A stretch of DNA of 64,000 nucleotides from Minisyncoccota bacterium (GCA_021209525.1 JAJOIF010000004.1:35730-99729), one strand, 5' to 3'; shown: positions 1-29,770, counted from the stretch's first letter. Numbers and translations are program-made. Notes: generated by a model from the sequence alone, not told the origin.

Positions 1-1
1 G

Positions 2-142
2 GCTCTCGTCTTTCTTGAAAGAAAAACACGAGATATGTACGACTTTTTGAAGTCACGCATCAAAGGAAAAGTAGTGCCTCGTATCACCTTTATCAAAGAT
101 GAGGGAGAGAAAAACAGACAACGTATTGACCTCTTGGTATAA
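2..142 (+). CDS. 3' end of an upstream gene (partial; C-terminal 46 aa ...RIDLLV*)
   Basis: Open frame enters the window and stops at TAA 140-142; product not recognisable from the fragment. Confidence 0.3.
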   Translation, partial: ALVFLERKTRDMYDFLKSRIKGKVVPRITFIKDEGEKNRQRIDLLV

Positions 143-195
143 AAAACGTAATATAGTACTGTATTTTCAAGATACATCGATCTGTTCAAGATCGT

Positions 196-267
196 GGCGT
201 GGTGGCGAAGTGGTAACGCTGCGGTCTGCAAAACCGCCATGCGCGGGTTCGATTCCCGCCCACGCCT
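196..267 (+). tRNA. tRNA-Cys (GCA)
   Basis: Cloverleaf read by eye: acceptor GGCGTGG/CCACGCC, anticodon arm GCGGT-CTGCAAA-ACCGC, T-arm GCGGG-TTCGATT-CCCGC. Confidence 0.85.
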
Positions 268-304
268 CAGAGTGATTCATTCACTCTATCAGACACACCC
301 ACTT

Positions 305-386
305 GCCGGAGTGGTGAAATTGGTAGACACGCTTGCCTTAGGAGCAAGTGCCTTCGGGCATGCTGGTTCGAGTCCAGTCTCCGGCA
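305..386 (+). tRNA. tRNA-Leu (TAG), long variable arm
   Basis: Acceptor GCCGGAG/CTCCGGC, anticodon loop CTTAGGA, long variable arm, T-loop GGTTCGAGTCC. Confidence 0.85.
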
Positions 387-414
387 CCCATAGAGAAGAT
401 TATCTTCCCTATTT

Positions 415-495
<81 letters not shown>

Positions 496-575
496 ACGAG
501 AGGAATGACGAGTACATCTGGTTGTATGCTCTTTAGAGTATACATTGAGGGCGAGCTCTTTTTCATTGTAGATAT

Positions 576-659
576 GCCGAGATGGTGGAATAGGTAGACA
601 CGAGGGACTTAAAATCCCTTGCTAGCAATGGCGTGCGGGTTCGATTCCCGCTCTCGGCA
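576..659 (+). tRNA. tRNA-Leu (TAA), long variable arm
   Basis: Acceptor GCCGAGA/TCTCGGC, anticodon arm with loop CTTAAAA, T-arm GCGGG-TTCGATT-CCCGC. Confidence 0.85.
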
Positions 660-1012
660 CAGAAAATATTAGTTCTGCAAGCGATAGCTTGTGGAACTTT
701 TATTTTCGTGTTGAGACGGGAATCAAAAAAAGTGAGCAATGCCGCACGGAGCAGAGCGAGTACGGCGCGAACGGCGTGGTCAGGCGAATGAGCTCGCAGC
801 GAGCACTTATGTGCGAAGCGAGAGCCATGAGGGTGACCGATTCCCGCTCTCGGCACAGCTTAAAGTGCCCTGGCCCGCTCAGCGGGTCCTCGGCACAGAA
901 AATACACGCCACGTGGTGTCACAGATGATATGATCCCTATGTGCGTGTTTTACGTTACATAAATATATTTGACGTGGTTACTTCTACAAGCGATAGCTTG
1001 CAGAACTTTTAC
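660..1012. repeat. Degenerate direct repeats of the tRNA-Leu(TAA) 3' end plus its downstream flank (att-like scars) enclosing a ~330-bp GC-rich segment
   Basis: cgattcccgctctcggcacag (639-659) recurs at 839-858. ctcggcacagaaaata (651-667) recurs at 888-905. tctgcaagcgatagcttgtggaactttta (676-704) recurs as tctacaagcgatagcttgcagaactttta at 983-1011. Confidence 0.5.
676..712 (+). terminator. Candidate rho-independent terminator of the tRNA cluster (short palindrome caagc-gat-agcttg then T-rich tract)
   Basis: Palindrome CAAGCgatAGCTTG followed by gaacttttattttcg. Confidence 0.35.
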
Positions 1013-1162
1013 ATTTGCCGCGTTTACCCCATCAGCCCCGTCAGACGGGTTAGGCGAGGCCAATGCGGCATGCTTGCGTATTCCGGGAATGGGTGGTTAT
1101 AAAATTTGACTTTTATACCTAATTATGCTATAATATACTTAAATACGGACTTTGAAAATGCG

Positions 1163-1229
1163 TGTTAGTGAATATATTCCCCGTGATATTTCGTTGGTAG
1201 TATATTCACTAACACTAAAAAAATAAAAA
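1163..1229 (+). promoter_or_regulatory. 70-bp palindromic leader, copy 1 (16-bp inverted repeat GTGTTAGTGAATATAT / ATATATTCACTAACAC with ~24-nt spacer) ending at the ATG of the downstream gene
   Basis: Near-identical copy (1 mismatch) at 1713-1779. Contains TATATT -10-like hexamers. Confidence 0.5.
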
Positions 1230-1622
1230 ATGAAAATATTTACAATCATCGCTGTGATATTTCTAGGAATCTTCACGGTAAACCTCTTGATCAAACCATT
1301 TGGTCAAGGAAGTATAGAAAAAATTTCTCATATTCAAGATGAATATGAGGGCAGAGGTCTTTCTCCTGGTGATTTTTGTTTTTCGCTGTACAAAAGCGAA
1401 GAGCAGGCCAAGAAAAAAGGCTATAATGTGACCCTGCCTACGGGCAAGACACAAGTATGGCGTGTACCCAACATAGATATAGTGATTGCCGACAAGTACG
1501 GCATCATTATCGGTGAAATAGGGCCCGGCAAGCCCTACTTGCCCATCAATGGAAATAAATTCTATGTATGGGCAAAAGAAAAAAAATATACAGGTGAAAC
1601 ATTCTGTATAGAAATTAAGTAG
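1230..1622 (+). CDS. Small membrane-anchored protein (N-terminal TM, beta-rich C-terminal domain); possible NfeD-like partner of the downstream SPFH protein
   Basis: ORF with N-terminal hydrophobic segment MKIFTIIAVIFLGIFTVNLLI. Sits next to an SPFH gene. Shares the same 70-bp leader. Confidence 0.45.
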   Translation: MKIFTIIAVIFLGIFTVNLLIKPFGQGSIEKISHIQDEYEGRGLSPGDFCFSLYKSEEQAKKKGYNVTLPTGKTQVWRVPNIDIVIADKYGIIIGEIGPGKPYLPINGNKFYVWAKEKKYTGETFCIEIK

Positions 1623-1636
1623 CTCTGTGTAAAAAT

Positions 1637-1672
1637 TAAAGCAAGTCAAAAGACTTGCTTTTTTATTTTATA
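1637..1672 (+). terminator. Rho-independent terminator
   Basis: Hairpin aagcaagtc-aaaa-gacttgctt followed by TTTTTTATTTT. Confidence 0.5.
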
Positions 1673-1712
1673 TATGTTATAATACATATAAATAAGAGCC
1701 TTAACAAAGATG

Positions 1713-1779
1713 TGCTAGTGAATATATTCCCCGTGATATTTCGTTGGTAGTATATTCACTAACACTAAAAAAATAAAAA
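1713..1779 (+). promoter_or_regulatory. 70-bp palindromic leader, copy 2
   Basis: Identical to 1163-1229 except one T/C difference. Ends at the ATG of the SPFH gene. Confidence 0.5.
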
Positions 1780-2829
1780 ATGAAAGAAACAACAAGAGAA
1801 TTTGCTGGTGGAGACATTGCCAGTAATTACCTCATCTCATCAGTACTTGCTGCAGGTGTAGGATTCATATGTGCACTCATTGGCTATGTTGTAATAACAA
1901 TAGCTGGTGAACTTACGGATTCTTTGGGAGGTATTATTCCCAAAGAGGTAAAAACTGGGATCAGCATAGGCCTTGCGCTTATGGGAATCATGGTATTCAA
2001 GGGCAAGATGAAAAACTGGGCTCACCAGGTAAAGGTGGGAGAGGTTCACATTGTAACCTTTTTTGGTCAACCAACCGAAACCATCCTTGAACCGGGAGAC
2101 AGATTTCTTCCTTTCAAGAAAAAGGTGTTTGATATTATTATTAGGAGTATTTTAATTGAGAGTATTGCATCAAAAGACAAAGTAGATGCAATATCAAAAG
2201 ATACTATTCCTTTATCAATTGATAATGTAGAAATACGCTATCAATTAGACAAGGATAATATCTTGAAAACTCTTGATGTCAACCTTGACACACTCAAGAA
2301 AGACCTGGAGTCAAATGTACTTACCTTTGTACGCCAGGTGATTAGTAAACTTGAGTGGGATAAAGTTACCGGGATAAAGGATTTGACGAATGGACTCCGT
2401 TTTGACAAAAATAAATCGGAGACAGAAATCAAAGCCGAGCTGGAGAAAAAATTTGAAGACATTGGCGTTCATGCCGATGATATTAAAATTTGCATTGAAT
2501 ACGCAATGTCAATCTTAGAACAAAGCAAGCAATACGGATTTGTAGTACTTGCTATTCAAATCGGAGATGTTATTTTATCTGAAGCGTTTAAAAAAGCAGC
2601 CGAGAAAAAGAAAATCGAAGAATTTGAAAGGGATGCCGAGCGTACTGAGGCTAATCACACCCTTGAATTAGTTGATGCGATGGTTAATCGCATGATAGCA
2701 CAAGACCCTACCATCAACAAAAAAGAAGCCTACGAGATCGCGGTGGCAAATGCCAACATGATCAAAGGCAAAGACGTTAAAATCATCCACACTTCTGGAA
2801 AAGGAGGCGGATTGATTAATAATGTGTAA
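1780..2829 (+). CDS. SPFH/band-7 (stomatin/prohibitin/flotillin-like) membrane protein
   Basis: N-terminal TM. Motifs resemble the SPFH core (HIVTFFGQP...ILEPGDRFLPF; ISKDTIPLSIDNVEIRYQL; VVLAIQIGDVIL...AAEKKK...AE). Confidence 0.55.
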   Translation: MKETTREFAGGDIASNYLISSVLAAGVGFICALIGYVVITIAGELTDSLGGIIPKEVKTGISIGLALMGIMVFKGKMKNWAHQVKVGEVHIVTFFGQPTETILEPGDRFLPFKKKVFDIIIRSILIESIASKDKVDAISKDTIPLSIDNVEIRYQLDKDNILKTLDVNLDTLKKDLESNVLTFVRQVISKLEWDKVTGIKDLTNGLRFDKNKSETEIKAELEKKFEDIGVHADDIKICIEYAMSILEQSKQYGFVVLAIQIGDVILSEAFKKAAEKKKIEEFERDAERTEANHTLELVDAMVNRMIAQDPTINKKEAYEIAVANANMIKGKDVKIIHTSGKGGGLINNV

Positions 2830-2845
2830 TCCTAATTTTTACAAA

Positions 2846-2916
2846 CAAAATCCTACGCAGTATTGCGTAGGATTTTTTCTATACAAAAAAACCGCCCATG
2901 TAGATGAGCGGTTTTT
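2846..2916. terminator. Two hairpins forming a bidirectional terminator region between convergent genes
   Basis: aatcctacgcagtattgcgtaggatttttt and aaaccgcccatgtagatgagcggttttt. Confidence 0.5.
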
Positions 2917-2924
2917 ATTGTGTA

Positions 2925-3218
2925 TTAGATTCTAATATCAGCACCAAGCGTATTAATGAGAATACGCATAATACCAAATACTGAAACCATAATAAACATA
3001 CCAATGATTCCCCAGAGCATATGCTGCCTTCCCTCTTGAGCTTTTTCAGTATTTCCCTGTTTATAAACAAAAAATTGAAGCATACCAATTAAAAAGAGGA
3101 CGAGTGCCAGCGCAAAAAAGAATACAATGAGCGGATTAATGATGACTTCGTATACACGAGCCATAAAATTTCCTACATTATCTTCAAGTGTTTGTGCAAA
3201 TGCGGTAAGTGGAAACAT
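2925..3218 (-). CDS. Small secreted/membrane 'pilin-like' protein, paralog family member 1 (C-terminal TM-loop-TM hairpin)
   Basis: C-terminus LIVFFFALALVLFLIGMLQFFVYKQGNTEKAQEGRQHMLWGIIGMFIMVSVFGIMRILINTLG is shared with the next four genes. N-terminus looks like a truncated signal peptide. Confidence 0.5.
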   Translation of the reverse strand: MFPLTAFAQTLEDNVGNFMARVYEVIINPLIVFFFALALVLFLIGMLQFFVYKQGNTEKAQEGRQHMLWGIIGMFIMVSVFGIMRILINTLGADIRI

Positions 3219-3226
3219 AAAAAATA

Positions 3227-3589
3227 CTAGAGTACAACACCAGGGATTTGTGACGGCGCGAGAGTTCCTCCTTGCTGAATACCAAAGGTATTGTTAACAA
3301 TACGAATCACTCCAAAAATAGATACCATCAAGAAAAGCGCGATAATTCCTTGAAGCATTACATCCCGCCCTGCTGCTTTTTTGGTATCATCTTTTGCAAT
3401 GATATAATTAACCATTCCCCAAATAAAGTACACAAGTCCAAGTGTAATCAAAATAGGGATAATTCTACCTAAGAGCGTACCAATAGTTTGTAAAATATTT
3501 CCTGCATTTGGTCCTGTAGATACGGTAATTTGAGCAAATGTTGCAAATGGTGTCAAAAGTGTTGCAAGGGCTCCTAAAAATTTTTTCAT
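3227..3589 (-). CDS. Small secreted 'pilin-like' protein, paralog 2 (signal peptide + C-terminal double-TM hairpin)
   Basis: Signal peptide MKKFLGALATLLTPFATFAQ. C-terminus IPILITLGLVYFIWGMVNYIIAKDDTKKAAGRDVMLQGIIALFLMVSIFGVIRIVNNTFG. Confidence 0.55.
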   Translation of the reverse strand: MKKFLGALATLLTPFATFAQITVSTGPNAGNILQTIGTLLGRIIPILITLGLVYFIWGMVNYIIAKDDTKKAAGRDVMLQGIIALFLMVSIFGVIRIVNNTFGIQQGGTLAPSQIPGVVL

Positions 3590-3699
3590 AGTTATGAATG
3601 ATGTTAATTATAAATAAACGACATGTAATCTAATAATGTGTACCTTTTATTATACTACAGAGTATTGGGAAAGGTAAAGAGGAAGGGGTAAAAAATATA

Positions 3700-4095
3700 T
3701 TATCGAAACTGTGGAATAGCAAAAACACTGAGGCCGAAAGTATTGGTGAGCATTGCAACAATTCCCCAAATAGAAATCATAACAAATAACCCAATGATGC
3801 TCCACAACATGAACTGACGCCCTTCTTCACGCTTTGTTTGATCTCCGGCATTTGCAATAAACTTAACCATACCAAACATAAACATAACGAGCGCCAGAGA
3901 AATAATGAGGGGTACAATAGTTCGACTAAGGAGGCACGTGCCGTACACAAAAATATCTCCCAAAGTATTAAATTGTGCGGCACATGTATTGCTTTGCCCT
4001 TGTTGTGCATACGTGACAAGCGGCATACCGAGCAGTGTAATTGCGCCAAAACCTGTGGTATAAAGTGATTGTTGTAGTCTGGTGAAGTATTTCAT
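3700..4095 (-). CDS. Small secreted 'pilin-like' protein, paralog 3
   Basis: Start chosen at MKYFTRL (signal-peptide-like), which removes the overlap with the next gene. C-terminal LIISLALVMFMFGMVKFIANAGDQTKREEGRQFMLWSIIGLFVMISIWGIVAMLTNTFG. Confidence 0.5.
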   Translation of the reverse strand: MKYFTRLQQSLYTTGFGAITLLGMPLVTYAQQGQSNTCAAQFNTLGDIFVYGTCLLSRTIVPLIISLALVMFMFGMVKFIANAGDQTKREEGRQFMLWSIIGLFVMISIWGIVAMLTNTFGLSVFAIPQFR

Positions 4096-4117
4096 AGAAG
4101 TAATAGCTTGGGACATA

Positions 4118-4615
4118 TTAAGCTCGTAATTGATTAATCGTACCGGCAATAGCATTTGCAATAATCACAGCTCCGAGCACGAGCGCTCCGCCGATAATAA
4201 CATAGAGGAATGTTTGCTTGGCCTCTTTGAGTTTATTAGGATCTCCTTGAGCCGCAATAAAGAGAAAGCCTGAATAAATAATAGCGAGTGCCACTAATGG
4301 TACAGCAATAAGTAGAGCGATATTTAAAATAGTGCTCACAAGACTTGGAATACTATCTACCGACCCTTCGAGAGGGTTTTTAAGATATGCAAAATCAGCA
4401 CCACGAGTACTTGATGTATCGCCAGGCCCCATAGTATCAGGATCATTTGTAGTTCCTCCGCCCGCGGCTGGAGTTGAGGTGGTCCCTCCTCCACCTATTG
4501 TATCTGAAACGGAAATCTGTCCATGCACAATATATTGCGGAGTCACTCCAATCAAGAAGAATACTCCGAAAAGCACGAATAAATATTTAATTGCGGTAAT
4601 GGTTATGTATTTCAT
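4118..4615 (-). CDS. Secreted 'pilin-like' protein, paralog 4, with Gly/Thr-rich linker
   Basis: Start chosen at MKYITITAIKYLFVLFGVFFLIG. Linker GGGGTTSTPAAGGGTTNDPD. C-terminal IALLIAVPLVALAIIYSGFLFIAAQGDPNKLKEAKQTFLYVIIGGALVLGAVIIANAIAG. Confidence 0.5.
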   Translation of the reverse strand: MKYITITAIKYLFVLFGVFFLIGVTPQYIVHGQISVSDTIGGGGTTSTPAAGGGTTNDPDTMGPGDTSSTRGADFAYLKNPLEGSVDSIPSLVSTILNIALLIAVPLVALAIIYSGFLFIAAQGDPNKLKEAKQTFLYVIIGGALVLGAVIIANAIAGTINQLRA

Positions 4616-4664
4616 GATATATCTCTTATGAATAAAATCTTTCTTATTGTACGTCACTTATGAC

Positions 4665-6758
4665 CTAGAAATCAAGGAAGCGGTATGCTTGATCGACACC
4701 AAGCGTTGAAAGGATCAGACTAACAATGAGCCATGCTGCCATAACAAATATAATTCCAAGCACTACTTTTCCAAAAATACTGCTTGCGAGTTTTCTCTTG
4801 TCTGGACTGGCACCACCGGTAATATACAAGAATCCGGCATACATAAATGCAATAGCTGCAATTGGGAAAATGAGCGCAAATGCAAAATTGATAAGGTTTT
4901 GAATGAGAATGATAATATGTTTAAATTCACAATCTTCGAGACCTGAGTGTCCACATGGTACCAATCCTACTTCTGAAACTGCATATTGCGTATTAGTTGA
5001 AAAACCCGCAAAAGCTTGATTGCCGGCACGCGGCTCACCAATATTACCTTGCCCTGAACCTGAAATAGAACCAGAAATTGGACCAGTTACATTTCCTTCA
5101 AATGCACCGCTGTCAATACTGCCGGAGGTCGGACCAGTTACATTTCCTTCAAATGCACCGCTGTCAATACTGCCGGAGGTCGGACCAGTTACATTTCCAG
5201 AAAAGGCACTGCTGTCAATATCCCCTGACGATATTGACTCTGGATCTAAAATCATCCCTAAAGATGTTCCTGCAATAGGTACTCCATCTTCGTACACTAA
5301 TGCAAAATACTCTCTGTTCATAGTGATAGGAATTCTTTGTGTGCCGTCAATTGATTCATAATTACTAAAGAAATTAAAAGCAAAAGATCTATTACCTGTA
5401 CCATAGACACGCTCAGTATCGGTAATAATTTGACTTGTCCATGATGAACCGATACTAAAATCAATACGCCCCACTCCTGTACGAGGCGTGCGCATATCCA
5501 CCGCATAACTGATTACATTTTGAAAATCAGGCGTGCGGCTTATAAAGCCAGCAAATTGCTGACTTTCAAATTTTACATCAATAGCATTTGCGGGTTCTGC
5601 AAATGCGGGTGTTTGTTGAAATGAAGCCAATTGGCCATTTACATAGAGTCCAAGGTAATATTTTTGACCTGGCACCACAAAATTATCACTATGCTGTGTC
5701 GGATCATATGTTCTATAGTAATAAAAAGATGGTGATGAGAGTACTTCACGAATCAATATTTTTGAATTATGCTGCGCAAAGTTTGGTGTCTCGCTCAATA
5801 CTACAGCAATATCAATTTCTGATTGATTCCCAGGGAAATCACCTAAATCACCCTGCAAAAGAATATCAAAAATATAATCATCATATTCATCAAGTTCTAC
5901 ATCAATGAGCCATCGGATAAATGGTCGATAACTTACCCGAAAATAGGACCCTGATTCTGTTTCAGGAAATGAAGATGATTCTGTTTCTGTAATCTGCGTA
6001 AAACCAGAAGATGTTGTAGAGAGCGTTCCTTGTCCTGTTGAAAAAGGAAGTGGCCCAGGCACTGCAGAGGCAAATGCCTGCTGGCTAATAAATGACCAAG
6101 ATGAAGAAAGCGCTTCGCCCGGACTTTGTCGAAATGCATACGACCCTAATGTGTATGAATTAAAAAGTGTTCGAGGTACATTATTGCCACGTATGTATAC
6201 ACGAACTACGAGAGGTGTATTTTGAGGTAATATAGCTGCAGGATTAAGGCTATTGTCAGCACGCACACCACGTTCATCAATTACAATAGCATCAAGTGGT
6301 TGAATGGAGGATCGGAATTGAATAACATTATCACCATTCACATCAAATGCCGCGGCAATGGGAACTTCATGAATACGGTGCCATAATTCCCCTTGCATAT
6401 CTTCGAGATGGAATTCTAATACATAATTTTGAGCAAGAGCAGCATCGGCATAATAAATAGCCGGAGATACAGCAATATAATTTTCAAAAACCTCGGCAGT
6501 GAATACAGTACCATTTGCTTGCTGTTGCGTATGCAAGAAATTTGTATCCGGAGTAATAAAACGATGTCCCGTTTGTAATTTTTGAGGAACTTGAAAACCT
6601 TGCGTATTTGCACCTGTCCAATCAATGGTGATAAGGTCAGTTGGCAATGTTGATTGCGCATGCACATAGCCGCCGATCACACCAAAAATCGCAACGCATG
6701 CAACTGCTAGCAAGAATCCTTTTTTGAAAAATGTAGTAATGAAAGAATGAGATGACAT
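4665..6758 (-). CDS. Large secreted surface protein (697 aa) with 17-aa tandem repeats and the same C-terminal double-TM 'pilin-like' domain
   Basis: Signal peptide, large extracellular region, repeats TSGSIDSGAFEGNVTGP. C-terminal FALIFPIAAIAFMYAGFLYITGGASPDKRKLASSIFGKVVLGIIFVMAAWLIVSLILSTLG. Confidence 0.6.
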   Translation of the reverse strand: MSSHSFITTFFKKGFLLAVACVAIFGVIGGYVHAQSTLPTDLITIDWTGANTQGFQVPQKLQTGHRFITPDTNFLHTQQQANGTVFTAEVFENYIAVSPAIYYADAALAQNYVLEFHLEDMQGELWHRIHEVPIAAAFDVNGDNVIQFRSSIQPLDAIVIDERGVRADNSLNPAAILPQNTPLVVRVYIRGNNVPRTLFNSYTLGSYAFRQSPGEALSSSWSFISQQAFASAVPGPLPFSTGQGTLSTTSSGFTQITETESSSFPETESGSYFRVSYRPFIRWLIDVELDEYDDYIFDILLQGDLGDFPGNQSEIDIAVVLSETPNFAQHNSKILIREVLSSPSFYYYRTYDPTQHSDNFVVPGQKYYLGLYVNGQLASFQQTPAFAEPANAIDVKFESQQFAGFISRTPDFQNVISYAVDMRTPRTGVGRIDFSIGSSWTSQIITDTERVYGTGNRSFAFNFFSNYESIDGTQRIPITMNREYFALVYEDGVPIAGTSLGMILDPESISSGDIDSSAFSGNVTGPTSGSIDSGAFEGNVTGPTSGSIDSGAFEGNVTGPISGSISGSGQGNIGEPRAGNQAFAGFSTNTQYAVSEVGLVPCGHSGLEDCEFKHIIILIQNLINFAFALIFPIAAIAFMYAGFLYITGGASPDKRKLASSIFGKVVLGIIFVMAAWLIVSLILSTLGVDQAYRFLDF
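5080..5232. repeat. 51-bp tandem repeat (two perfect units plus degenerate flanking copies) inside the 697-aa surface-protein gene
   Basis: ggaccagttacatttccttcaaatgcaccgctgtcaatactgccggaggtc at 5080-5130 and 5131-5181, with a diverged third unit. Confidence 0.85.
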
Positions 6759-6762
6759 AATA

Positions 6763-8052
6763 TTATGGTAATAATTGAACTAATCCTGCATGCATACGAC
6801 GTATTGCATCGTCTACGCGAACTCTACCTGATGCCGTGTCTTGAATGACAGCGCGCCAGAGTTCACGCGTCGCTTGAGGGTCTGGATCGGGCCACGACCT
6901 TGCACTGATAGCACTATTATAAAACATAAGCCATAGAGGATCTGTGGGTGTCTCTCGTAATAATGATCGCTGCACTGGTGGCACAAAGAATTGATCCCGA
7001 AGGTACGCCCCTGCAAATGGTTGAGCAAATTGCTGTGCGACCAAATATGCGCCTGGGATATTTTGAGACATACGACTTATCCCCACAAAAGTGAGACGAC
7101 CTGATGTTGCGCGTAATTGTGTGTCCCGCATTTGAGGCATCATACGCACATCAAAATTCAAATTCGGATTACGTTCTCGTAATAATCGCGCTTCACTTGC
7201 ATATCCAAAATACAGAGCAAGCGTTCCTTCAATGAATGCGTCTTGATCATTTTTTTGAGCGGTGCTCCATGAGTACGCTGGCTGCGCAGGATTTGAAAAA
7301 GTTGTGTAGAAACGAACCGCAGATGCTGCAACACCTCCTTCTTGAAAAACAACCACGGGTTCACGAGCTTCGTTACGCCCCACGAGAGGATTACCCGCTT
7401 GGAGCATAATGAGTTCAAGCACATCGGTCCCATGCGTAATATTTGCAAATGTACCCATTGCCACGAGAGACTGACGCAGTGCTCCTGCGTCGTTTTTTTG
7501 TACAATACGAGGCGCCAAAGCAAAAAACTCATCCCAAAAAACAGGAGGATCTACGACAAAAGAAGATGCGAGAATATCTCGGTTTACATACATAACCATT
7601 GGGTCAACCATAATAGGAAAACCAAGAACCCCTTCGGTGTCAACAAGCATTTCCGCCTGATCAATAAAGGTTTCGCGCACTGTTTCTGGTGGATAGCTTT
7701 CAAAAGGAATAGCAAATAATTTATTACGATGCGCAAGGAGTGTTTCATCGGTCACAAAAAAGAGATCAGGGCCTCTTCCTTCTGCAAGGGCACGTAATAA
7801 TTCACGGTCAAATGTTTGTGCATCTTTTTGAATATAGGAAACTGAAAGATTGGGGTACAAATCATCAATAGTTGTAATGAGCGGTGCCATGCCTTCTTGA
7901 GGTAAGGTACCCCACACAACGATAGCACCTGAAGGGCCGGCATTCCTCCCTCCTCCGCCTTGGCTCCCTGATGTTGCAAAAAGTGCAAAACCGATCAAGG
8001 CTCCTATTCCAAAAATAATGAGAAAGATTGTTTGAAAGTCTAATTTTTGCAT
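6763..8052 (-). CDS. Membrane-anchored extracellular solute-binding-like protein (ABC SBP family 1 fold)
   Basis: N-terminal TM, Gly-rich linker. Motifs IVVWGTLPQ..., GPDLFFVTD, MYVNRDIL are typical of MalE-like SBPs. First gene of the operon. Confidence 0.5.
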   Translation of the reverse strand: MQKLDFQTIFLIIFGIGALIGFALFATSGSQGGGGRNAGPSGAIVVWGTLPQEGMAPLITTIDDLYPNLSVSYIQKDAQTFDRELLRALAEGRGPDLFFVTDETLLAHRNKLFAIPFESYPPETVRETFIDQAEMLVDTEGVLGFPIMVDPMVMYVNRDILASSFVVDPPVFWDEFFALAPRIVQKNDAGALRQSLVAMGTFANITHGTDVLELIMLQAGNPLVGRNEAREPVVVFQEGGVAASAVRFYTTFSNPAQPAYSWSTAQKNDQDAFIEGTLALYFGYASEARLLRERNPNLNFDVRMMPQMRDTQLRATSGRLTFVGISRMSQNIPGAYLVAQQFAQPFAGAYLRDQFFVPPVQRSLLRETPTDPLWLMFYNSAISARSWPDPDPQATRELWRAVIQDTASGRVRVDDAIRRMHAGLVQLLP

Positions 8053-8155
8053 ACGATACGATATATTATAAGTTGTTCCTTATTGTACCACATCAATTCC
8101 TTTTTGTAGCATACACCTGTGTATACCTCTTTCTATCGCCGTATGTGCGCTGCGA

Positions 8156-10609
8156 CTACAAAAGCGTGAGCGAAGCAATTTCATCACCTGCACGCAATTT
8201 CATAATACGCACCCCTTGTGTGGCGCGACCAAGCACTGAAATATCTTCTAAGGCAGTACGAATCACTTGACCTTTTTTAGAAATTACAATAACTTCAGTA
8301 TACGAAGCATCTACCACGCGAGCACCCACCAAGAGACCTGTTTTTGCGGTGAGTTGTGCGGTTTTAATGCCTGAACCTCCGCGATTTTGCACCTTGTATT
8401 CAGAGAGCTGTGTACGCTTACCAAAACCATTATCCGTTACCACGAGCATGTGCATCTCAGCAGCTACAGGAGTGATAACATCTACACTCACGAGCGTGTC
8501 ACCTTTTTTAAGTGCCATACCCTTGACCCCTGCGGCACCGCGCCCCATAGGACGAATATCAGCATTCTTGAAACGCACTGATTGACCATTACGAGACGAC
8601 ATAATAATGTCATCGTCTTCTGACAAGAGGCGCACATCAAGCAAGAGATCGTCACCCTTGAGCGAAAGTGCAATGAGCCCATTTCTGCGGACATTTTTGA
8701 ATTGATCAGCGGCTACTTTTTTGACAATACCTTTTTGAGTTGCAAAGAAGAATGACAATGTTTTTTGTTGTTCTGTTTTAGGAATAGCAAGAATTGAGGT
8801 GACTTTTTCATCATCAGCCAGTTGCAAGAAATTCATAATTGACTTGCCTTTGGTTGCGCGTTTTGCTTCGGGAATTTCGTACATCTTGATCGAATAGACC
8901 TTACCCATATTGGTAAAGAAAAGGAGGTCACTCTTAGTGCTCGTCACCAAGAGATGCGTCACGACATCTTCTTCTTTGGTTTCCATATCAACAACACCTA
9001 CGCCACCGCGTTTCTGTGCTTTGTATTCAGATGGATCAGTACGTTTTACATATCCTCCTTGAGTAAATACGAGTGCTGATTCTTTGTCTTGGACAAGGTC
9101 TTCGTCTGAAATTTCAGCAACACCGCGAGCTACGACACGTGTGCGTCGCTCGTCATTGTATTTTTCTTTGAGTTCAAGTAATTCGTCTTTGACGACTGCA
9201 AGCATTTTTGCAGGGCTCGCAAGTAATGCTTTGAGCGACTTAATGAGTTTGAGCATTTCTGCTAATTCATCTTCGATTTTCTTGCGCTCAAGGCCGGCAA
9301 GTTTTTGCAAGCGCATATCTAAAATAGCCTGAGCTTGAATATCAGAGAATTTGAATTTTTTAATAAGGTTTGCTTTGGCTGTAGGAGTATCAGGTGATGC
9401 TTTGATGGTTTTAATAACTTCGTCAATATGATCGAGAGCTTTTTTGAGACCTTCTAAGATATGCGCACGCGCTTCGGCTTTGCGTAAATCAAATTCTGCG
9501 CGACGCTTGATGACTTCTCGGCGGTGATCAATAAAGTTCACGAGAATGTCTTTGAGTGACAATGTTTGCGGCACACCATCAACGAGAGCAACGAGGTTAA
9601 AGTTAAAATTGCTTTCAAGGTCAGTATGTTTATAAATATAGTTCAAAATACGCTGCGGATTAATACCTGTCTTGAGTTCAATAACAATACGAATATCATG
9701 TGTTGATTCATCACGCAAATTTTTGATACCTTGAATTTTCTTGTCACGCACCAAATCCGCAATCTTGAGAATCAGATTCGCCTTGTTTACACGATATGGA
9801 ATTGAGGTAATGATAATTTGGAATGCACCACGAACGCTTTCTTCTATGGTTGCTTCGCCACGCGTCACAACACCGCCACGCCCTGTTGCATAAGCATGAG
9901 CGATATCTTTTTTGTTATAGATGACACCCCCTGTTGGAAAATCAGGCCCTTGTACATATTGCATCAAATCTTCATTGGTCGCATTTTTATTATCAATAAG
10001 TGCTACCGTAGCGTCAACCACTTCACCGAGATGGTGTGGCGGAATATTCGTCGCCATACCCACCGCAATACCCAATGTTCCATTCAAGAGCAGGCTTGGT
10101 ACTCCCGCAGGAAGCACAATAGGCTCTACTGTAGACCCGTCAAAGTTTGGACGAAAATCAACAGTTTCTTTGTTAATGTCGCGCATGAGTTCTCCTGCAA
10201 GCTTTGACATTTTTGCTTCAGTGTAACGATACGCAGCAGCAGCGTCGCCGTCAATAGAACCAAAGTTCCCTTGCCCAATAACAAGAGGATACCGGAATGA
10301 GAACTCTTGAGCCATACCCACCATAGAATCATATACGGCAGAGTCACCGTGCGGGTGATATTTACCGAGCACATCCCCTACAATAGTCGCTGATTTTTTG
10401 AAGCGTGCACTGGCGGTCAAATTGTTTTTGTACATAGAATACAAAATGCGACGATGTACCGGCTTGAGCCCATCGCGCACATCAGGAAGCGCACGCGAAG
10501 TAATCACGGACATAGAATACGCCAAAAATGAATCTTTCATTTCTTGGACAATAGGTACTGGTTCAATATGATCGTGAGGTGTTGATACGGGTGATTCTTT
10601 TTTAGCCAT
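8156..10609 (-). CDS. gyrA: DNA gyrase subunit A
   Basis: 817 aa. N-terminus [34 protein letters not shown] and C-terminal beta-pinwheel repeats. Confidence 0.95.
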
Positions 10610-10650
10610 AGATGATACAAGTATACTACAAATGAATAATTAATTAAAGT

Positions 10651-11076
10651 TTAAAGCTCTGTTTCGGATGTCTCGGTAATGTCTGTAATAGTGAGTTCGC
10701 GTTCTGCGGCGAGCTGTTCTTGATTTTCATTTGCAATACGACGCAGGCGTTCTTGCTCTAGTCGTTCAAAAAATGCCGCCTCGTCAACCTCTTGGGTAAG
10801 TTCTTCGGTGCCAATATTTTGAAAGAGTTCCGCGGCGTCCCTGCGGACACTTGGTCTATGTGCTTGAAAATCTTTGAATTGACTAGAGATTGATTGACGC
10901 AAGGCTTGAACTGGGCGAGCAGCCGAAGAGCGCTCCCTGCGATTATCTTCAAAGCGTCCAGCAATTAAGGCTATCCATATGCCTATAATACACAGCAATA
11001 TGACGAGCGAGATAATGAGTGCATAACGGCGACGTTCTGTATGAGTTTTCGTGCGTAATGTTTTCAAGAAATCCAT
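10651..11076 (-). CDS. Hypothetical single-pass membrane protein
   Basis: ORF with TM ALIISLVILLCIIGIWIALIA and an acidic C-terminal tail. Confidence 0.4.
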   Translation of the reverse strand: MDFLKTLRTKTHTERRRYALIISLVILLCIIGIWIALIAGRFEDNRRERSSAARPVQALRQSISSQFKDFQAHRPSVRRDAAELFQNIGTEELTQEVDEAAFFERLEQERLRRIANENQEQLAAERELTITDITETSETEL

Positions 11077-11090
11077 AAGGCGAGAACGGA

Positions 11091-11708
11091 TTATGCAAGC
11101 GGTATAATTTCTGCTTTCTTACCTGCAAGGTCTTTGTATTTGAGAGTAAGTTTTGGTTCTGCGGATACTTGCGCATCACCACCCTCTTTGACAAATTGAG
11201 TAAGTGATTCTTGGTCATATCCCATAGGGATAATAATGTGAGGATTAAATGATACCGCTAATTTATGAGCTTCTGCTGGCATCAAAAGTCCTTGCCCCAC
11301 AGGAACAAAGATGATATCTACATCTTCGATGACTTCTTGGACGGCGGCGGGGATTTCCTTGCTCGTTAATGCTCCTAAAAAGAGAATCTTGATATCGTCA
11401 AAGGTAAAGTAGTAGATAGTATTAATATATTCGCGCCCATCTAGAATAGTTTGCGTCATGAGCCCTTGGATAAAGTACCCATGCACTTCATATGATCCAG
11501 GACTATCTATAGTAAAGGGTTCTTTGTCGCCATAGGTAACATTTTCAAAACCATGATAGAGAGGATGCTGTACACTTGAAAGTGCTATATCAGCACCAAA
11601 TTTTGACACCTTGCCAGAGTCGGTATCTTTGCCGATAGGGTTAAGTGCGATAATGGTATCCCCTACTTGTAATTTAAAGAATTGTTTGCCGTGATGCGTA
11701 ATAATCAT
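11091..11708 (-). CDS. MBL-fold metal-dependent hydrolase (UPF0173-like)
   Basis: 205 aa with beta-lactamase-fold-like features (HHGKQ..., VPVGQGLLM, HIIIPMGYD). Confidence 0.55.
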   Translation of the reverse strand: MIITHHGKQFFKLQVGDTIIALNPIGKDTDSGKVSKFGADIALSSVQHPLYHGFENVTYGDKEPFTIDSPGSYEVHGYFIQGLMTQTILDGREYINTIYYFTFDDIKILFLGALTSKEIPAAVQEVIEDVDIIFVPVGQGLLMPAEAHKLAVSFNPHIIIPMGYDQESLTQFVKEGGDAQVSAEPKLTLKYKDLAGKKAEIIPLA

Positions 11709-11784
11709 ATATGTATAGTATACACTAATTCACGTAAAAATAAAAAGCCGCACATAGTGCGACTTCCTTTTAAATACAGATGCG

Positions 11785-12198
11785 TTATTTTTTAGCAGCA
11801 TCTCTGGCATTTTTTGCCTCCACAGTATGCGTGGTATGCGGCACAATACGTAAACGCTCCGCAGGAATAAGCTCTCCTGTTTTTACACAAATACCGTAGG
11901 TACCATTTGCTATTCTCAGAAGCGCCCTATCAAGATGCGCAATCATCTCCTTTTGACGATTAGTAGCATCAATGAGTTGTTTTTTTTGGTCTTCTGCAAT
12001 TTGAAAGTCGAGACCATTTTCACTCCGCAGAGCATCTCCAGAATAATCAGTTTTGATTTGTTTTTCGAACTCTTTAATGTCTGCCAGGCATTGATTTTTT
12101 TTCTCAAGAATTAATGTTTTGAATTCTGCGAGTTCTTCTGATGAGTATTTTTTCTTTCCTGTACTCACTGTCGGTGTAATTTGTTTTACAGTCATCAT
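11785..12198 (-). CDS. DksA/TraR-family protein lacking the Cys4 zinc finger
   Basis: ALLRIANGTYGICVKTGELIPAERLRIVPHTTHTV matches the DksA C-terminal pattern but retains only one Cys. Confidence 0.5.
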   Translation of the reverse strand: MMTVKQITPTVSTGKKKYSSEELAEFKTLILEKKNQCLADIKEFEKQIKTDYSGDALRSENGLDFQIAEDQKKQLIDATNRQKEMIAHLDRALLRIANGTYGICVKTGELIPAERLRIVPHTTHTVEAKNARDAAKK

Positions 12199-12403
12199 TT
12201 TTTAAGTTTTTTTGTGAACAATATTTGAAATGTATAATACAATATATACATACAAAGTGCAAGCAATCTTGCAATTTTCTTGTGAATAGGTATACTGTAT
12301 AAGCATTTTATTAGACAGATAACCTATAGCTTAACCTTTTGCTGGTAGTCACCTACCCGCAAAAACACTATAGGTGTCCGTTATATGCGGACTTTTATTT
12401 TTT

Positions 12404-13495
12404 ATGCAAACAGACAAATCAGAAGGAGTGCTTGCGCTTATGGATCAACTCATTGTTGACCTCAAAGACCGCGCAATTGCACCAGACGATCTCGTTGAAG
12501 GAACTGTTGTTGCGCTCGAACGACGCGCAGTATATATCAACCTCGGCGACCTCGGTACAGGAATTATTTACGGACGCGAATATATGAATGCGCGCGATAT
12601 TATCCGCAACCTCAATATTGGCGATCCTATCAAAGGAAAAGTAGTTGAAGCAGAAAACGAAGACGGGTACATTGAACTCTCTTTGAAAGAAGCAAAACAG
12701 GCACTTATTTGGAAAGAAGCAGATCAGGCAATGCGTGACAAAGTACAATTTGCTCTTGAAATTGCAGAAGCCAACAAAGGTGGACTCCTCGTTCACTGGC
12801 AAGGTGTTGAAGGCTTCCTTCCCGCATCACAACTCTCTCAAGACAATTACCCACGCGTTGCTGATGGCGACAAAGACAAGATCCTTGAAGAATTGAAAGG
12901 ACTCGTGGGCAAGAAACTTGAACTCAATATCATCGGCGTTAATCCAAAAGAAGGTAAACTTATCTTCTCAGAAAAAGGAAAAGACAAGGCTGAAAAACAA
13001 GAACGTATGGTGAAATACGAAGTAGGTGATACTATCGAAGGAGCCGTTACCGGAACCACAGACTTTGGTATTTTTATCAAACTCGAAGAAGGTCTCGAAG
13101 GATTGGTGCACATCTCTGAACTCGATTGGGCACTCGTAGAAGACCCAAAGAAACTCTTCAAAGTTGGCGATACTGCACATGCACGCATCATTGAAATCAA
13201 AGATGGTAAAGTATCTCTCTCTATTAAGCAACTCAAAGCAAATCCATGGGAAACAGCATCACAAAAATATGCTCCCGAACAAGAAGTGTCTGGTGTTGTT
13301 ATTAAACACAACAAACACGGAGCTCTCGTTGCTATTGAAGAAGGAGTTGCTGGCCTCGTACACGTAAGTGAATTTGGCGACGAAGCAACCTTGCGCAATA
13401 ATCTTGAAATTGGCAAGAGCTATCCATTCAAAATCAATGTATTTGAACCAAAACAACAAAAAATGACCTTGTCATACACAGGCGCAAAGAAATAA
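12404..13495 (+). CDS. rpsA: 30S ribosomal protein S1 (short, multi-S1-domain form)
   Basis: Repeated S1-domain motifs (GTVVALERRAVYINLG..., VHISELDW, GLVHVSEFG). Start at MQTDKSEG is uncertain (alternatives 12374 or 12440). Confidence 0.8.
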   Translation: MQTDKSEGVLALMDQLIVDLKDRAIAPDDLVEGTVVALERRAVYINLGDLGTGIIYGREYMNARDIIRNLNIGDPIKGKVVEAENEDGYIELSLKEAKQALIWKEADQAMRDKVQFALEIAEANKGGLLVHWQGVEGFLPASQLSQDNYPRVADGDKDKILEELKGLVGKKLELNIIGVNPKEGKLIFSEKGKDKAEKQERMVKYEVGDTIEGAVTGTTDFGIFIKLEEGLEGLVHISELDWALVEDPKKLFKVGDTAHARIIEIKDGKVSLSIKQLKANPWETASQKYAPEQEVSGVVIKHNKHGALVAIEEGVAGLVHVSEFGDEATLRNNLEIGKSYPFKINVFEPKQQKMTLSYTGAKK

Positions 13496-13514
13496 TATTC
13501 TCGCATGTGAAAAT

Positions 13515-13552
13515 ACCACCCTCATCAAGGGTGGTATTTTTTTATACCTCTA
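13515..13552 (+). terminator. Rho-independent terminator after rpsA
   Basis: aaaataccaccctcatcaagggtggtatttttttat. Confidence 0.55.
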
Positions 13553-13635
13553 TTTTTATAATATACAGTACCCCGGGCAGAGCATGGGGTATCACCTTTA
13601 CTCAGCGTAATGCTCTCATGTGGCGAAGTATATGT

Positions 13636-14196
13636 TCAAGAGTGTGCTTCATTGTATCTATTCATAGCGGCAGCATGGCCTTCTGCTATAATAACTGCCA
13701 GCGCTGAGGCAATACGCTTTGCAATATGAGGAATTTCTTGTAATTCATCATCAGGATGACGACCGAGCACAGGCGGTTTAATGATGCGACCATCTTGCCC
13801 TAATCGACTAATACCAATGCGTACACGCACAAAATCAAGCCCGCCGAGAGATCTGGCTATAGAATGTACGCCATTATTCCCTGCTGCACCTCGATTATAG
13901 GAAATCTTGAATGACCCAAAAAAAATATCGAGGTCATCATGAAGCACAACAATATGATCATGCGCTACATGATGACGATCCGCAAGAATGCGCACTGCAT
14001 GACCAGAGAGGTTCATCATGGTTTGTGGTTTTACATAAAGCGCATCTGATGTGGCATATGTGAGGGCATCTGCATATTTGTCATACTCCCAAGACGCTTC
14101 TGGTAAAAGCGCATCACATACCAACCAACCAATATTATGGCGGGTATATGTATATTTATCTCCCTTATTTCCAAGAGCAACAATGAGATATTTCAT
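13636..14196 (-). CDS. pth: Peptidyl-tRNA hydrolase
   Basis: MKYLIVALGNKGDKYTYTRHNIGW... is a typical Pth N-terminus; 186 aa. Confidence 0.9.
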   Translation of the reverse strand: MKYLIVALGNKGDKYTYTRHNIGWLVCDALLPEASWEYDKYADALTYATSDALYVKPQTMMNLSGHAVRILADRHHVAHDHIVVLHDDLDIFFGSFKISYNRGAAGNNGVHSIARSLGGLDFVRVRIGISRLGQDGRIIKPPVLGRHPDDELQEIPHIAKRIASALAVIIAEGHAAAMNRYNEAHS

Positions 14197-14316: not shown

Positions 14317-14507
14317 TTGTGAACTTTTTGTTTCGTTCTATGACCCATTATGTATTCAATTGATATACACAATCAGGCTTTTGCCTCTTCTTAACGCAGA
14401 AGAGGAACGTGTGCCAATTTTCGAACTTGAGCACAATTGTTCGTTGCGTATAGACACAACATCGACCAATATACTAACGGTCAAAGACTCGTATAGTATT
14501 GGCAAAT

Positions 14508-15968
<1,461 letters not shown>

Positions 15969-21000: not shown

Positions 21001-21092
21001 ACAAAATCCATTTCGCCGTCGGTACCCCAAAGCTCCGACAAAAGCCGGATTACGGGTTGCTCTATGAGATTGTCTTCGTTGAAGGGGTTCAT
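18078..21092 (-). CDS. hsdR: Type I restriction enzyme R subunit
   Basis: 1004 aa. SF2 helicase motifs including MTDEAHRSQY (DEAH), GGGKSY, and a C-terminal coiled-coil. Confidence 0.9.
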   Translation of the reverse strand: MNPFNEDNLIEQPVIRLLSELWGTDGEMDFVNAYTDEGDAKLGREHQGQVVLVSRLRTTLEKLNSSIAKSAIDDAIEEITKDRSKMSMVKANKEIYELLKNGVKVDVVSGDGTRDVETVRVIDFDNPENNHFTLVSQMWILGDMYKRRADLVGFVNGLPLVFIELKAAHKNLRDAFDGNIRDYKDTIPQMFWYNQLLIISNGLDAKMGSITSGFEHFSDWKRISDEEEKGRVDLETLLRGMCDKTRLLDIIENFVLFQDTNKGMIKLIGKNHQYLGVNNAIKSFEKREENNGRIGVFWHTQGGGKSYSMVFFAQKILRKYEGNYTFLVVTDRQELDKQIYANFAGVGAVLEPEEMVRASSVQKLRELLTEDHRNIFTLIHKFQLQEGETEFPVLSERSDIIAMTDEAHRSQYDTLALNMRRALPNASFIGFTGTPLISGEEEQTKSTFGDYVSIYDFKQSVDDKATVPLYYDNRIPELQIDLESLGQDLGTVLETFELDDDQEKKLEREFNTEYHLITREERLNTIARDVIEHFNSQGNDGKALFVAIDRPTAVKMYNKMKTQPNCPDIAMVMSSTQNEVDDFRKLGLDIETHRRRMINEDLEKKFKDVNDPLKIVIVCNMWLTGFDAPIISTVYLDKPMKNHTLMQTIARANRVWGAKTNGLIVDYIGVFRSLKKALAIYGARGDEDAKPIKPKTELVNELRGVLGELDKYCSEYGINIVQIGEAVDFEKLALIENAVDAILTDEESKNEFLTMSNRATSLLGAIMPDPSASEFFNVVKLYRVLAERVRILTRKDVNVEDVADAIEELLDNAITAEGYVISEDYKPYDLSKIDFEKLRKYFEKNKRKEAEKLKQSLKEKLEELVRLNPTRQKLVEQFEKLLSEYNSGSKNIEEFFEALMKFAESLNDEEKRGVREELIEEELAIFDLLYKEDLKENEIKEIKKVAKELLKTLKQTAFVLDWRKTQQGRAKVLVTIKDVLYDELPEPYDEGLIESKTSKFWICV

Positions 21093-21105
21093 ATTTATAC
21101 TATAA

Positions 21106-22209: not shown

Positions 22210-22213
22210 AATT

Positions 22214-23383: not shown

Positions 23384-23455
23384 AAATTCTTGTTTGTGGA
23401 TAACTATTTACATTTTTGACCATTTTTGATATATTGTAAATGTAGGTTTTTCCTA

Positions 23456-24166
23456 CTAATCACGCGGTCCCGCTTTTGCGGGATTTTCGCTTTTTGGCTC
23501 GTAATTTCTTTTTCCTGTATAGAGTCGCCCAAAATCAAAATATTTATCTTTAATTTTATGCAGTTCTTCTGCGACTTGATTTCTCACTCCACAAATCCCA
23601 ATCTTTTTATTTTCAATTTTCAATCTTTGTAAAGGACCCTGCATATCAGAATCCCCAGAAAACAAAATAACTGCAGAAAACTTTTTTGCATCATCTAATA
23701 TGTCCATAGTCATCTCTACATCAAAATTACATTTTGGTTCTTCTATTAAAATACCTGGTTTATGTAATTCGTCTACAAGTTCTTCAATTTTACTTTTTAC
23801 ACCATCATCAAAAAGAGTCATAGTTTTACGCTGAAAAAACATTCCTTCTTTTATTGTCTTGGGAATATACTTCATTGGTTTTGTTTTTAGGATTGCACCA
23901 GTTTTTAAAATTCTTTTATGAAAAGCTTTTGAGTTTTTCAAATCTCTGGTATTTAAACCATAGTAAACTTTTATTTCTTGAATATTTTTATATGTTTTTA
24001 GTTGTTCTATCAAGTCTTCTATTCTAAATTTCCAACCCAAAACATCTTGCCAGTGGAACATATTTGTTAAATCCAAATACACAAAAACCACAGGCTCTTT
24101 TTCTAACCATTCTAGATAGTCTTCTCTTACCATAATTTTATTTTTAATATCCTGTGGTATTTCCAT
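23456..24166 (-). CDS. NYN-domain (LabA-like PIN-fold) nuclease
   Basis: VFVYLDLTNM... and AVILFSGDSDMQGPLQRLKIENKKIGICGV match the NYN/LabA fold. Confidence 0.65.
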   Translation of the reverse strand: MEIPQDIKNKIMVREDYLEWLEKEPVVFVYLDLTNMFHWQDVLGWKFRIEDLIEQLKTYKNIQEIKVYYGLNTRDLKNSKAFHKRILKTGAILKTKPMKYIPKTIKEGMFFQRKTMTLFDDGVKSKIEELVDELHKPGILIEEPKCNFDVEMTMDILDDAKKFSAVILFSGDSDMQGPLQRLKIENKKIGICGVRNQVAEELHKIKDKYFDFGRLYTGKRNYEPKSENPAKAGPRD

Positions 24167-24167
24167 A

Positions 24168-24272: not shown

Positions 24273-24273
24273 G
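24201..24273. repeat. 75-bp direct repeat, copy B
   Basis: caacttcacccttttccactttgccttgcgagttttctccccactattcttttgtgtcgtttgtgtagtcatg matches copy A. Confidence 0.8.
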
Positions 24274-24276
24274 TAT

Positions 24277-27497: not shown

Positions 27498-27506
27498 ATT
27501 GTTATA

Positions 27507-29768: not shown

Positions 29769-29770
29769 AG

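Follow-up and report, generated by a model that had tools for sequence, protein, structure and literature searches.

We describe here a six-gene operon on the minus strand of a 64-kb stretch of DNA from a Minisyncoccota bacterium (GCA_021209525.1, JAJOIF010000004.1:35730-99729), in which a gene encoding a homologue of solute-binding proteins (SBP) is followed by five tandem genes encoding pilin-like proteins, termed p1 to p5 in their order after the SBP. The whole stretch, 64,000 nucleotides long, is referred to as the window, and positions are counted from its first letter. With moderate confidence we read the locus as the Paceibacteria version of the VirB2-like pilin array of Patescibacteria, made up of five non-interchangeable subunits and a dedicated, tethered MalE-like protein, which would form a fibre or conduit on the cell surface, at the interface with the host, and would depend on a type IV secretion system (T4SS). 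Patescibacteria, which live in dependence on host cells, account for much of bacterial diversity; Paceibacteria, to which this ultra-small bacterium of the candidate phyla radiation (CPR) belongs, is their largest class. The locus by itself is not a new kind of system, and arrays of this kind have already been published; what appear to be unreported are the SBP partner, the fixed order of five subunits, the core-genome site adjacent to gyrA, and a pilin with a large, variable ectodomain.

All six open reading frames (ORFs) were confirmed on the minus strand, at 6763-8052, 4665-6758, 4118-4657, 3700-4161, 3227-3589, and 2925-3218, as tightly packed as an initial annotation of the window had described them (gaps of 4 and 8 nt at two junctions). 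The features of the operon are as follows (TM, transmembrane; HMM, hidden Markov model).

6763-8052, minus strand: SBP homologue, 429 aa; TM helix, linker, and predicted two-lobe fold; first gene of the operon
4665-6758, minus strand: p1, 697 aa; predicted signal peptide (residues 1-34), ectodomain of ~575 residues, Cys-x7-Cys, and C-terminal VirB2-like hairpin
4689-4934, minus strand: hairpin module of p1, residues ~609-690; match to the module HMM
5080-5220, minus strand: in-frame tandem repeat in p1, 51 bp x 2.8; Tandem Repeats Finder
4118-4615, minus strand: p2, 165 aa from the probable ATG; ORF listed at 4118-4657, 179 aa from GTG
3700-4095, minus strand: p3, 131 aa from the probable ATG; ORF listed at 3700-4161, 153 aa
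3227-3589, minus strand: p4, 120 aa; pilin-module protein
2925-3218, minus strand: p5, 97 aa; shortest pilin-module protein, with a conserved 9-residue leader
2883-2921, minus strand: intrinsic terminator, from RNA folding; closes the operon

Conservation of the array across genomes

A scan that used one genome per species located the SBP in at least 591 species genomes; the best 80 of these loci were analysed. Six Pfam-annotated neighbourhoods shared a common block in the order Pth, S1, Lactamase_B_3, gyrA, (methyltransferase), SBP, and four to six T4SS_pilin genes, and the large ORFs that recurred within ±10 kb were the SBP, gyrA, IF-2, a Mur ligase, an aminotransferase, and a HisRS-like protein. 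gyrA lay upstream of the SBP in 56 of 57 loci. Downstream pilin genes were counted in the 56 loci with at least 3.5 kb of sequence on that side. At least four pilin-module ORFs directly followed the SBP on the same strand in 53 of them. The number of pilin genes was five in 31 loci, six in 13, four in 5, and seven in 4. The first pilin gene started no more than 30 nt from the SBP stop codon in 44 of the 56 loci, with overlap in 14. The gyrA-SBP-pilin array is a conserved core-genome block.

Within this block, the members of the array are distinct. In a positional test of 35 five-gene arrays, this one included, the best match in another genome occupied the same position in 87, 79, 67, 84, and 95% of cases for p1 to p5, respectively, against 20% expected. 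The five proteins of the window mapped to positions 1 to 5 in 33, 30, 27, 31, and 33 of 34 genomes, and identity across genomes was 37-47% within a position as compared to 25% between positions within a genome. Based on the same-position matches and the within-position identity, the paralogues therefore arose before these genomes radiated and have retained their distinct identities and order. Judged by these alignments, p1 to p5 are ancient, distinct subunits related as positional orthologues, rather than diversifying copies.

The hairpin module and its relatives

The C-terminal module that the initial annotation had recognised in five of the proteins was readily recovered: a hydropathy scan found that p1 to p5 each end in two strongly hydrophobic segments of ~19 residues that lie ~20 residues from one another with a short charged loop between them, and the loop sequences quoted in that annotation are present. 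The same scan placed a hydrophobic leader at the N-terminus of each protein, very short in p5. The mutual identity of the five tandem genes is 12-32%. Scores against PF18895 ('T4SS_pilin'; a module of ~71 residues with a gathering threshold of 26.6 bits) were 31.0 bits for p1, 34.9 for p2, 36.6 for p3, 24.2 for p4, and 26.9 for p5, such that four proteins (p1, p2, p3, and p5) passed the cut-off and p4 fell slightly under it. Despite its sub-threshold score, p4 has positional orthologues in the p4 genes of other arrays and is also matched by a module HMM, which was built from the shared hairpin and iterated on 86 related loci; in the window, this model matched exactly the p1 to p5 ORFs and nothing else. 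The paralogue most like TrbC by Pfam is p2, at 24.7 bits against PF04956 (cut-off 27.9 bits). The NCBIfam model NF045849 ('pilin-like conjugal transfer protein') matched all four small paralogues (E 7e-8 to 1e-4) at 22-32 bits (best p3, 32.1) against a cut-off of 40; they are related to this family without being members of it.

Authentic VirB2/TrbC sequences for profile comparison were taken from six conjugative plasmids with Agrobacterium-type VirB2 loci, each located between virB1 and virB3-virB4. Aligned with hhalign, the position-1 hairpin profile matched authentic VirB2 with a probability of 83.5% and a score of 37.1 over 62 columns that include both helices, while control profiles (VirB2 reversed, and 30 column-shuffled versions) scored no more than 14.6. 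The pooled family profile gave 24.7 against 10.4 for its control. The best match of a profile of 65 modules to PDB sequences was a designed channel at E 0.066, which is generic membrane-protein noise, and a tblastn search with p2 against 72,556 plasmids returned no match. Because of the Pfam, hhalign, and PDB profile results, we regard the module as a bona fide member of PF18895 and probably, by sequence comparison, as distantly related to VirB2/TrbC. The likeness to such pilins that the initial annotation had suggested is supported by PF18895 on the five hairpins, by the near-threshold PF04956 match of p2, and by the alignment of p1 to VirB2. The locus has at least two tandem PF18895/PF04956 genes of low mutual identity on a patescibacterial chromosome, which is the array definition used in a recent survey (PMC12102498).

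The architecture of leader, two hydrophobic helices, and short loop is present by hydropathy and sequence reading, with leader cleavage predicted by eye; signal peptides were recognised by eye as well, from their n, h, and c regions. Predicted cleavage sites in all five pilins take the form [H/Y/F]-[A/G]|Q (the bar marking the cut), and therefore each mature pilin would begin with glutamine, which could cyclise to pyroglutamate. A conserved Cys pair was observed immediately before the first helix in p1 and p3. Signal peptides had initially been ascribed to the variable N-termini of all these proteins, and leaders can indeed be read in the others, but the 97-aa p5 has no ordinary signal peptide, only the 9-residue leader MFPLTAFA|Q. 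Orthologues of p5 share a short leader, M..LF.N.AYA|S, and without exception the final gene of the array is the shortest one, with AxA at the end of a leader of ~10 residues. The possibility that p5 is an N-terminally truncated copy was considered and rejected, given that the orthologues have the same short leader; since it is conserved, the short leader is a feature of the protein.

The first pilin differs from the others in carrying a large ectodomain. Its predicted signal peptide spans residues 1-34 (...YVHA|Q), hydropathy places TM-like segments at residues 14-32, 615-633, and 665-683, the PF18895 match spans residues 618-682, and AlphaFold2 predicted the helices of the hairpin at 607-646 and 652-685. 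The tandem repeats that had been reported in this 697-aa protein were found by Tandem Repeats Finder as 17-residue units (...SGSIDSGAFEGNVTGPT..., 94% matches, score 247) in the membrane-proximal part of the ectodomain. A word-index homologue search with the whole protein retrieved only itself, and a full HMMER search with the ectodomain found only 8 relatives among 1.84 billion representatives. Among them, P0122, P0123, and P0126 have the architecture of p1 (signal peptide, ectodomain, Cys-x7-Cys, and hairpin); the matches of two giant proteins, P0124 and P0125, are confined to the repeat region, and these two contain similar repeats 9-14 times. Position-1 proteins of related loci range from ~120 to 600 aa, and their ectodomains form unrelated groups, some annotated weakly as fn3-like. 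By these comparisons, the p1 ectodomain is lineage-specific and fast-evolving, and it is the only fast-evolving part of the array. Of four public assemblies of this organism, three (L088, L089, and L090) stop within the p1 gene, at residues 406, 346, and 530, which may reflect strain-level variation or the ectodomain repeats.

The SBP, the secretion system, and competing explanations

The head gene of the operon had been called a membrane-anchored SBP-like protein, and it proved to be one by Pfam (PF01547, SBP_bac_1, 49.8 bits, E 6.5e-13; PF13416, SBP_bac_8, 42.7 bits), with a single N-terminal TM helix at residues 4-27. An AlphaFold2 model built with 32 homologues (pLDDT 91.2, pTM 0.85) shows a two-lobe body joined by a disordered Gly-rich tether to the N-terminal TM helix. 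Top matches of this model in a Foldseek search of the PDB were 5ci5, 4qsd, 5f7v, 2zyo, 7bvt, 4r9g, and 7c67 (E ~1e-20), MalE/CUT1-type proteins with TM-scores up to 0.74 at 12-18% identity; the ligands of the matched proteins are sucrose, maltodextrin, cycloalternan, and mannotriose or cellotriose. By sequence search alone, only 4r9f was detectable. We are confident, from the model, that the protein has a membrane-tethered MalE/CUT1-type oligosaccharide-binding fold. Many of its 27 invariant positions are Trp, Tyr, or Phe, a composition typical of sugar-binding sites. Compared with CUT1/MalE-type SBPs such as 2zyo, 4qsd, 5f7v, and 4r9g, with which it shares the two-lobe fold and the SBP_bac_1/SBP_bac_8 families, the protein is held by a TM helix, not by a lipid anchor or free in the periplasm, and it invariably shares an operon with pilin-like genes instead of having permease and ATPase genes nearby. 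SBPs of the CUT1 type work with MalF/MalG-type permeases and a MalK-type ATPase, for which the genes are usually found in one operon with them. No such permease or ATPase was detected by Pfam among the ORFs of the window or in the six Pfam-annotated related neighbourhoods; the only ATP-binding cassette (ABC) system in the window is of the MacB/FtsX type, at 38120-40053. Relatives of the SBP number in the hundreds, full-length at 35-49% identity, all in Paceibacteria-type organisms.

Pilin arrays of this general kind have been catalogued. Quinonero-Coronel et al. (2025, Microb Genom; PMC12102498) screened 3,035 genomes of Patescibacteria for PF18895 and PF04956 and reported 441 'VirB2 arrays' of 2-11 genes with an average identity of 25%; VirB2-like genes occurred in 1,948 VirB4-positive assemblies but adjoined virB4 in just 1,135. 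Pilin subunits of the T4SS cluster are essential in Southlakia epibionticum (Wang et al. 2023, Cell; PMC10633639), and the patescibacterial T4SS with its pilin array stands alone among such systems in having been shown to be essential to the growth of the bacterium itself. A 2025 review (PMC12857230) described the patescibacterial T4SS as the sole one of a Gram-positive-type (monoderm) bacterium with potential pili and speculated that its pilus acts as a conduit through which material is taken up from the host. Genes for 'T4SS pilins' rank with the most strongly expressed genes of unknown function in the cultured Paceibacteria that live as parasites of methanogens (PMC10936435). The initial annotation had been unable to assign the operon to a characterised system; that statement no longer stands, given the curated Pfam family and the published patescibacterial arrays (PMC12102498, PMC10633639, PMC12857230). 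Gyrase, SBP, and solute are not mentioned in PMC12102498, and nothing further was found in the literature searched.

The likeness of the locus to the published patescibacterial arrays (S. epibionticum ML1 SEML1_0006-0019, N. lyticus TM7x, and the 441 arrays) lies in tandem, divergent genes that each encode a signal peptide and a two-helix hairpin, in detection by PF18895/PF04956, and in a chromosomal location within a monoderm CPR host and outside any relaxase context. Unlike the arrays of T4SS clusters, this one sits outside such a cluster, in a housekeeping block beside gyrA; it is headed by a MalE-like SBP, its five members are positional orthologues over at least dozens of species, and the first of them has a large ectodomain. 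With VirB2 of Agrobacterium and TrbC of RP4, from Gram-negative T4SSs, the pilins share the leader, the two hydrophobic helices, and the short loop, the p1 hairpin aligning over 62 columns and p2 approaching the PF04956 threshold; they differ in the remoteness of the sequence relation (under the Pfam cut-off), in the number of paralogues (five, not one), in the monoderm host, in the fusion of one member to a 575-residue ectodomain, and, as compared to plasmid VirB2, in not adjoining virB1, virB3, or virB4. The Mbov_0395 family of Mycoplasma integrative and conjugative elements (NF045849) resembles them in its 80-residue two-helix module and its wall-less or monoderm lineage, but no such element surrounds this locus and the scores are below the family cut-off. 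Bartonella and Anaplasma T4SS loci also have several divergent, tandem VirB2 genes (cited in PMC12102498). Those copies have been read as antigenic or host-range variants, whereas positional orthology here argues for fixed, distinct roles. For Paceibacteria, the locus points to five ancient, non-redundant subunits in fixed order, genomically uncoupled from the T4SS and with a sugar-binding-type partner, which argues against a purely 'antigenic variation' reading of pilin arrays.

The favoured explanation, a T4SS-dependent fibre or conduit, starts from the leader and two-helix PF18895/VirB2-type hairpin present in each pilin. The Sec machinery would insert the pilins into the membrane with both termini outside and the short, weakly basic loop inside, and signal peptidase would cleave the leaders at [AG]|Q. 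A monoderm-type T4SS (VirB4, VirB6, VirB3, and VirB8), presumably encoded elsewhere in the genome and, going by relatives and the literature, typically near dnaA in this class, would then extract the pilins from the membrane and build from them, on the cell surface, a fibre or conduit in contact with the host. The first pilin may be a low-copy tip or decorating subunit whose fast-evolving ectodomain sets host specificity, with the smaller paralogues as shaft or base. The co-translated SBP would cooperate with the fibre on the surface of the cell; its most plausible role is to bind an oligosaccharide or glycan, either a host surface glycan or host-derived cargo, without feeding an ABC importer. 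If so, the SBP, with its probably conserved ligand, becomes a concrete partner for the idea of uptake from, or recognition of, the host, and the variable p1 ectodomain becomes a candidate determinant of host range.

Several observations weigh against this explanation. On the side of the pilins, positions 2-5 aligned alone with VirB2 gave hhalign probabilities under 4% (not significant), the profile of 65 modules recovered no solved conjugative pilin from PDB sequences, and AlphaFold2 applied to p1 without an alignment yielded a pLDDT of 38, with the ectodomain unusable and only the hairpin excepted. No pilus has yet been seen for any patescibacterial T4SS (PMC12857230). On the side of the secretion system, a Pfam scan of 46 further ORFs found no VirB4, VirD4, VirB6, or VirB8 in the window, in agreement with the initial remark that no VirB4/VirD4 is nearby, and no T4SS ATPase or channel gene was detected within ±10 kb of the 80 related loci; the T4SS dependence of the pilins is thus inferred, not shown. 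In favour of a T4SS encoded elsewhere, Table S1 of PMC12102498 includes seven genomes with the locus and marks six of them VirB4-positive. The seventh, a related draft metagenome-assembled genome (MAG) with an array, is marked VirB4-negative; it is an incomplete, scaffold-level assembly. The VirB4 status of the source assembly was sought in the same supplement, which has no entry for it. Finally, what links the SBP to the pilins is conserved adjacency alone, and gyrA is an equally conserved neighbour.

The main rival, which we consider unlikely, is a hetero-oligomeric envelope complex of VirB2 ancestry that operates independently of any T4SS, with the SBP and the five two-helix proteins forming, for instance, an SBP-dependent uptake channel or sensor. 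Such a complex would account for an operon that always lies apart from T4SS genes, for an SBP with no ABC permease nearby, and for the VirB4-negative draft genome, and the fixed set of five orthologous subunits with one SBP does resemble a stoichiometric complex; but VirB4 is found in six of the seven related genomes, the exception being the incomplete assembly, homologous arrays in Saccharimonadia lie inside the T4SS cluster and are essential there, and there is no precedent for a VirB2-type hairpin as a transporter. A somewhat less likely explanation again is that the SBP is merely a conserved neighbour that serves a CUT1 ABC sugar importer encoded elsewhere, the pilins working without it. 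Its canonical MalE-type fold with conserved aromatics would suit that role, as would the rigid synteny of the lineage, in which gyrA, Pth, S1, and Lactamase_B_3, none of them plausibly linked to pilins, are conserved to the same degree. Against it, the overlap or gap of no more than 30 nt between SBP and first pilin in 44 of 56 loci indicates translational coupling, the SBP-pilin junction stays constant while the genes downstream of the array vary between genomes, and no CUT1 permease appeared in any neighbourhood examined.

A third proposal goes back to the initial annotation, which had entertained a membrane-inserted toxin family with diversifying N-termini. In its wider form, with the proteins as toxins, bacteriocins, or holin-like factors that are secreted or insert into membranes, it takes in the small size, the two hydrophobic helices, the variable N-terminal parts, and the lineage-specific p1 ectodomain. 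We find it very improbable: positional orthology and 37-47% cross-species identity argue for structural subunits under purifying selection, the site beside gyrA belongs to the core genome, no immunity-like genes are present, the Pfam and NCBIfam matches are to pilins, and only the ectodomain of p1 evolves fast among five positional orthologues in a housekeeping neighbourhood. Of more interest, though doubtful and less probable than either the T4SS-independent complex or the SBP as a mere neighbour, is a nutrient-capture apparatus, of which the invariant pairing of the MalE-like protein with five fixed VirB2-type subunits would be the mark; a fibre or channel derived from pilins would extend to the host, and at its base the tethered SBP would take over host-derived oligosaccharide. 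If true, SBP-dependent uptake through a T4SS-type conduit, or through a T4SS-independent pilin channel, would replace the ABC permease and give physical form to the published speculation on the patescibacterial T4SS pilus as an uptake conduit.

Gene models and the remainder of the window

Four small proteins of 97-179 aa had initially been listed after p1. The ORFs exist, but the lengths of 179 and 153 aa did not hold: the internal ATGs at 4615 and 4095 are most likely the true starts, and they agree with the public MAG gene calls of 165 and 131 aa. With these starts the apparent 44-nt overlap disappears, and the intergenic gaps along the operon become 4, 49, 22, 110, and 8 nt, the first being the 4 nt between the SBP stop codon and the p1 gene. 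The terminator hairpin 3' of the p5 gene has a dG of -18.8 kcal/mol (z -7.16 against shuffles) and is followed by a U7 tail. A promoter scan of the operon region found 17 candidates where 15.9 were expected by chance, and therefore no promoter is claimed. The operon is flanked by gyrA (8156-10609) upstream and by a divergent SPFH protein and a tRNA cluster downstream. The source is a 'Candidatus Pacebacteria' MAG, and proteins identical to the 697-aa protein and the SBP occur in other MAGs of that name, e.g. GCA_021208345.1. One public MAG contig, JAJOJW010000014.1 (L087), differs from the window by single-base indels at 3382 (in p4) and 3095 (in p5), which split these genes into 76- and 52-aa calls; homopolymer errors in that MAG are probable, because the intact p4 and p5 of the window match their orthologues.

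Two observations concern the setting of the operon. Cumulative GC skew (composition of positions 1-14000 of the window) was maximal near 4 kb and fell steadily over the remaining window, and the orientation of the genes changes at roughly that point; a terminus or origin of replication may therefore sit near the pilin operon. On contig L002 (413-9711), the closest metagenomic relative (SBP 49% identical), the entire operon of SBP and five pilins occurs twice, as a perfect inverted duplication flanking a gene for a 238-aa protein; this may be an assembly artefact or a genuine palindromic duplication.

Elsewhere, a full-length 16S rRNA gene was located on the minus strand at 14504-15959, with neither a 23S nor a 5S match anywhere in the window, so that the rRNA genes are unlinked here. 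A low-GC (0.28-0.38) island of defence genes and prophage remnants, in this CPR genome, extends from 18078 to 37655. It also contains an NYN nuclease, RadC, a LexA-like S24 repressor, and a ParB-N6/N4 methylase, and within it, at 29169-30694, is a compact type I cyclic oligonucleotide-based antiphage signalling system (CBASS), adjoined by a 303-aa ORF (30696-31607) for which no family match was found. The other features of the island, and one beyond it (42689-43258), are listed below.

18078-21092, 22214-23383, and 25980-27497: hsdR, hsdS, and hsdM, respectively, of a type I restriction-modification system
21106-22209: Shedu SduA gene, inserted between hsdR and hsdS
24277-25746: AAA ATPase of the PDC-S01 type
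29169-29768: Cap15-type effector of the CBASS with two TM segments; PADLOC E 9e-57
29771-30694: CBASS oligonucleotide cyclase; PADLOC E 1e-106, Pfam SMODS only E 1e-4
34358-36264: terminase-like genes, small and large
36474-37655: serine recombinase
42689-43258: sigma factor of the extracytoplasmic function type

Beyond the island, a MacB/FtsX permease, an ABC ATPase, and a 565-aa HlyD-like membrane-fusion protein form an operon at 38120-42248 that resembles a tripartite pump, in an organism thought to have no outer membrane; the operon is preceded by a small DUF5666 protein.

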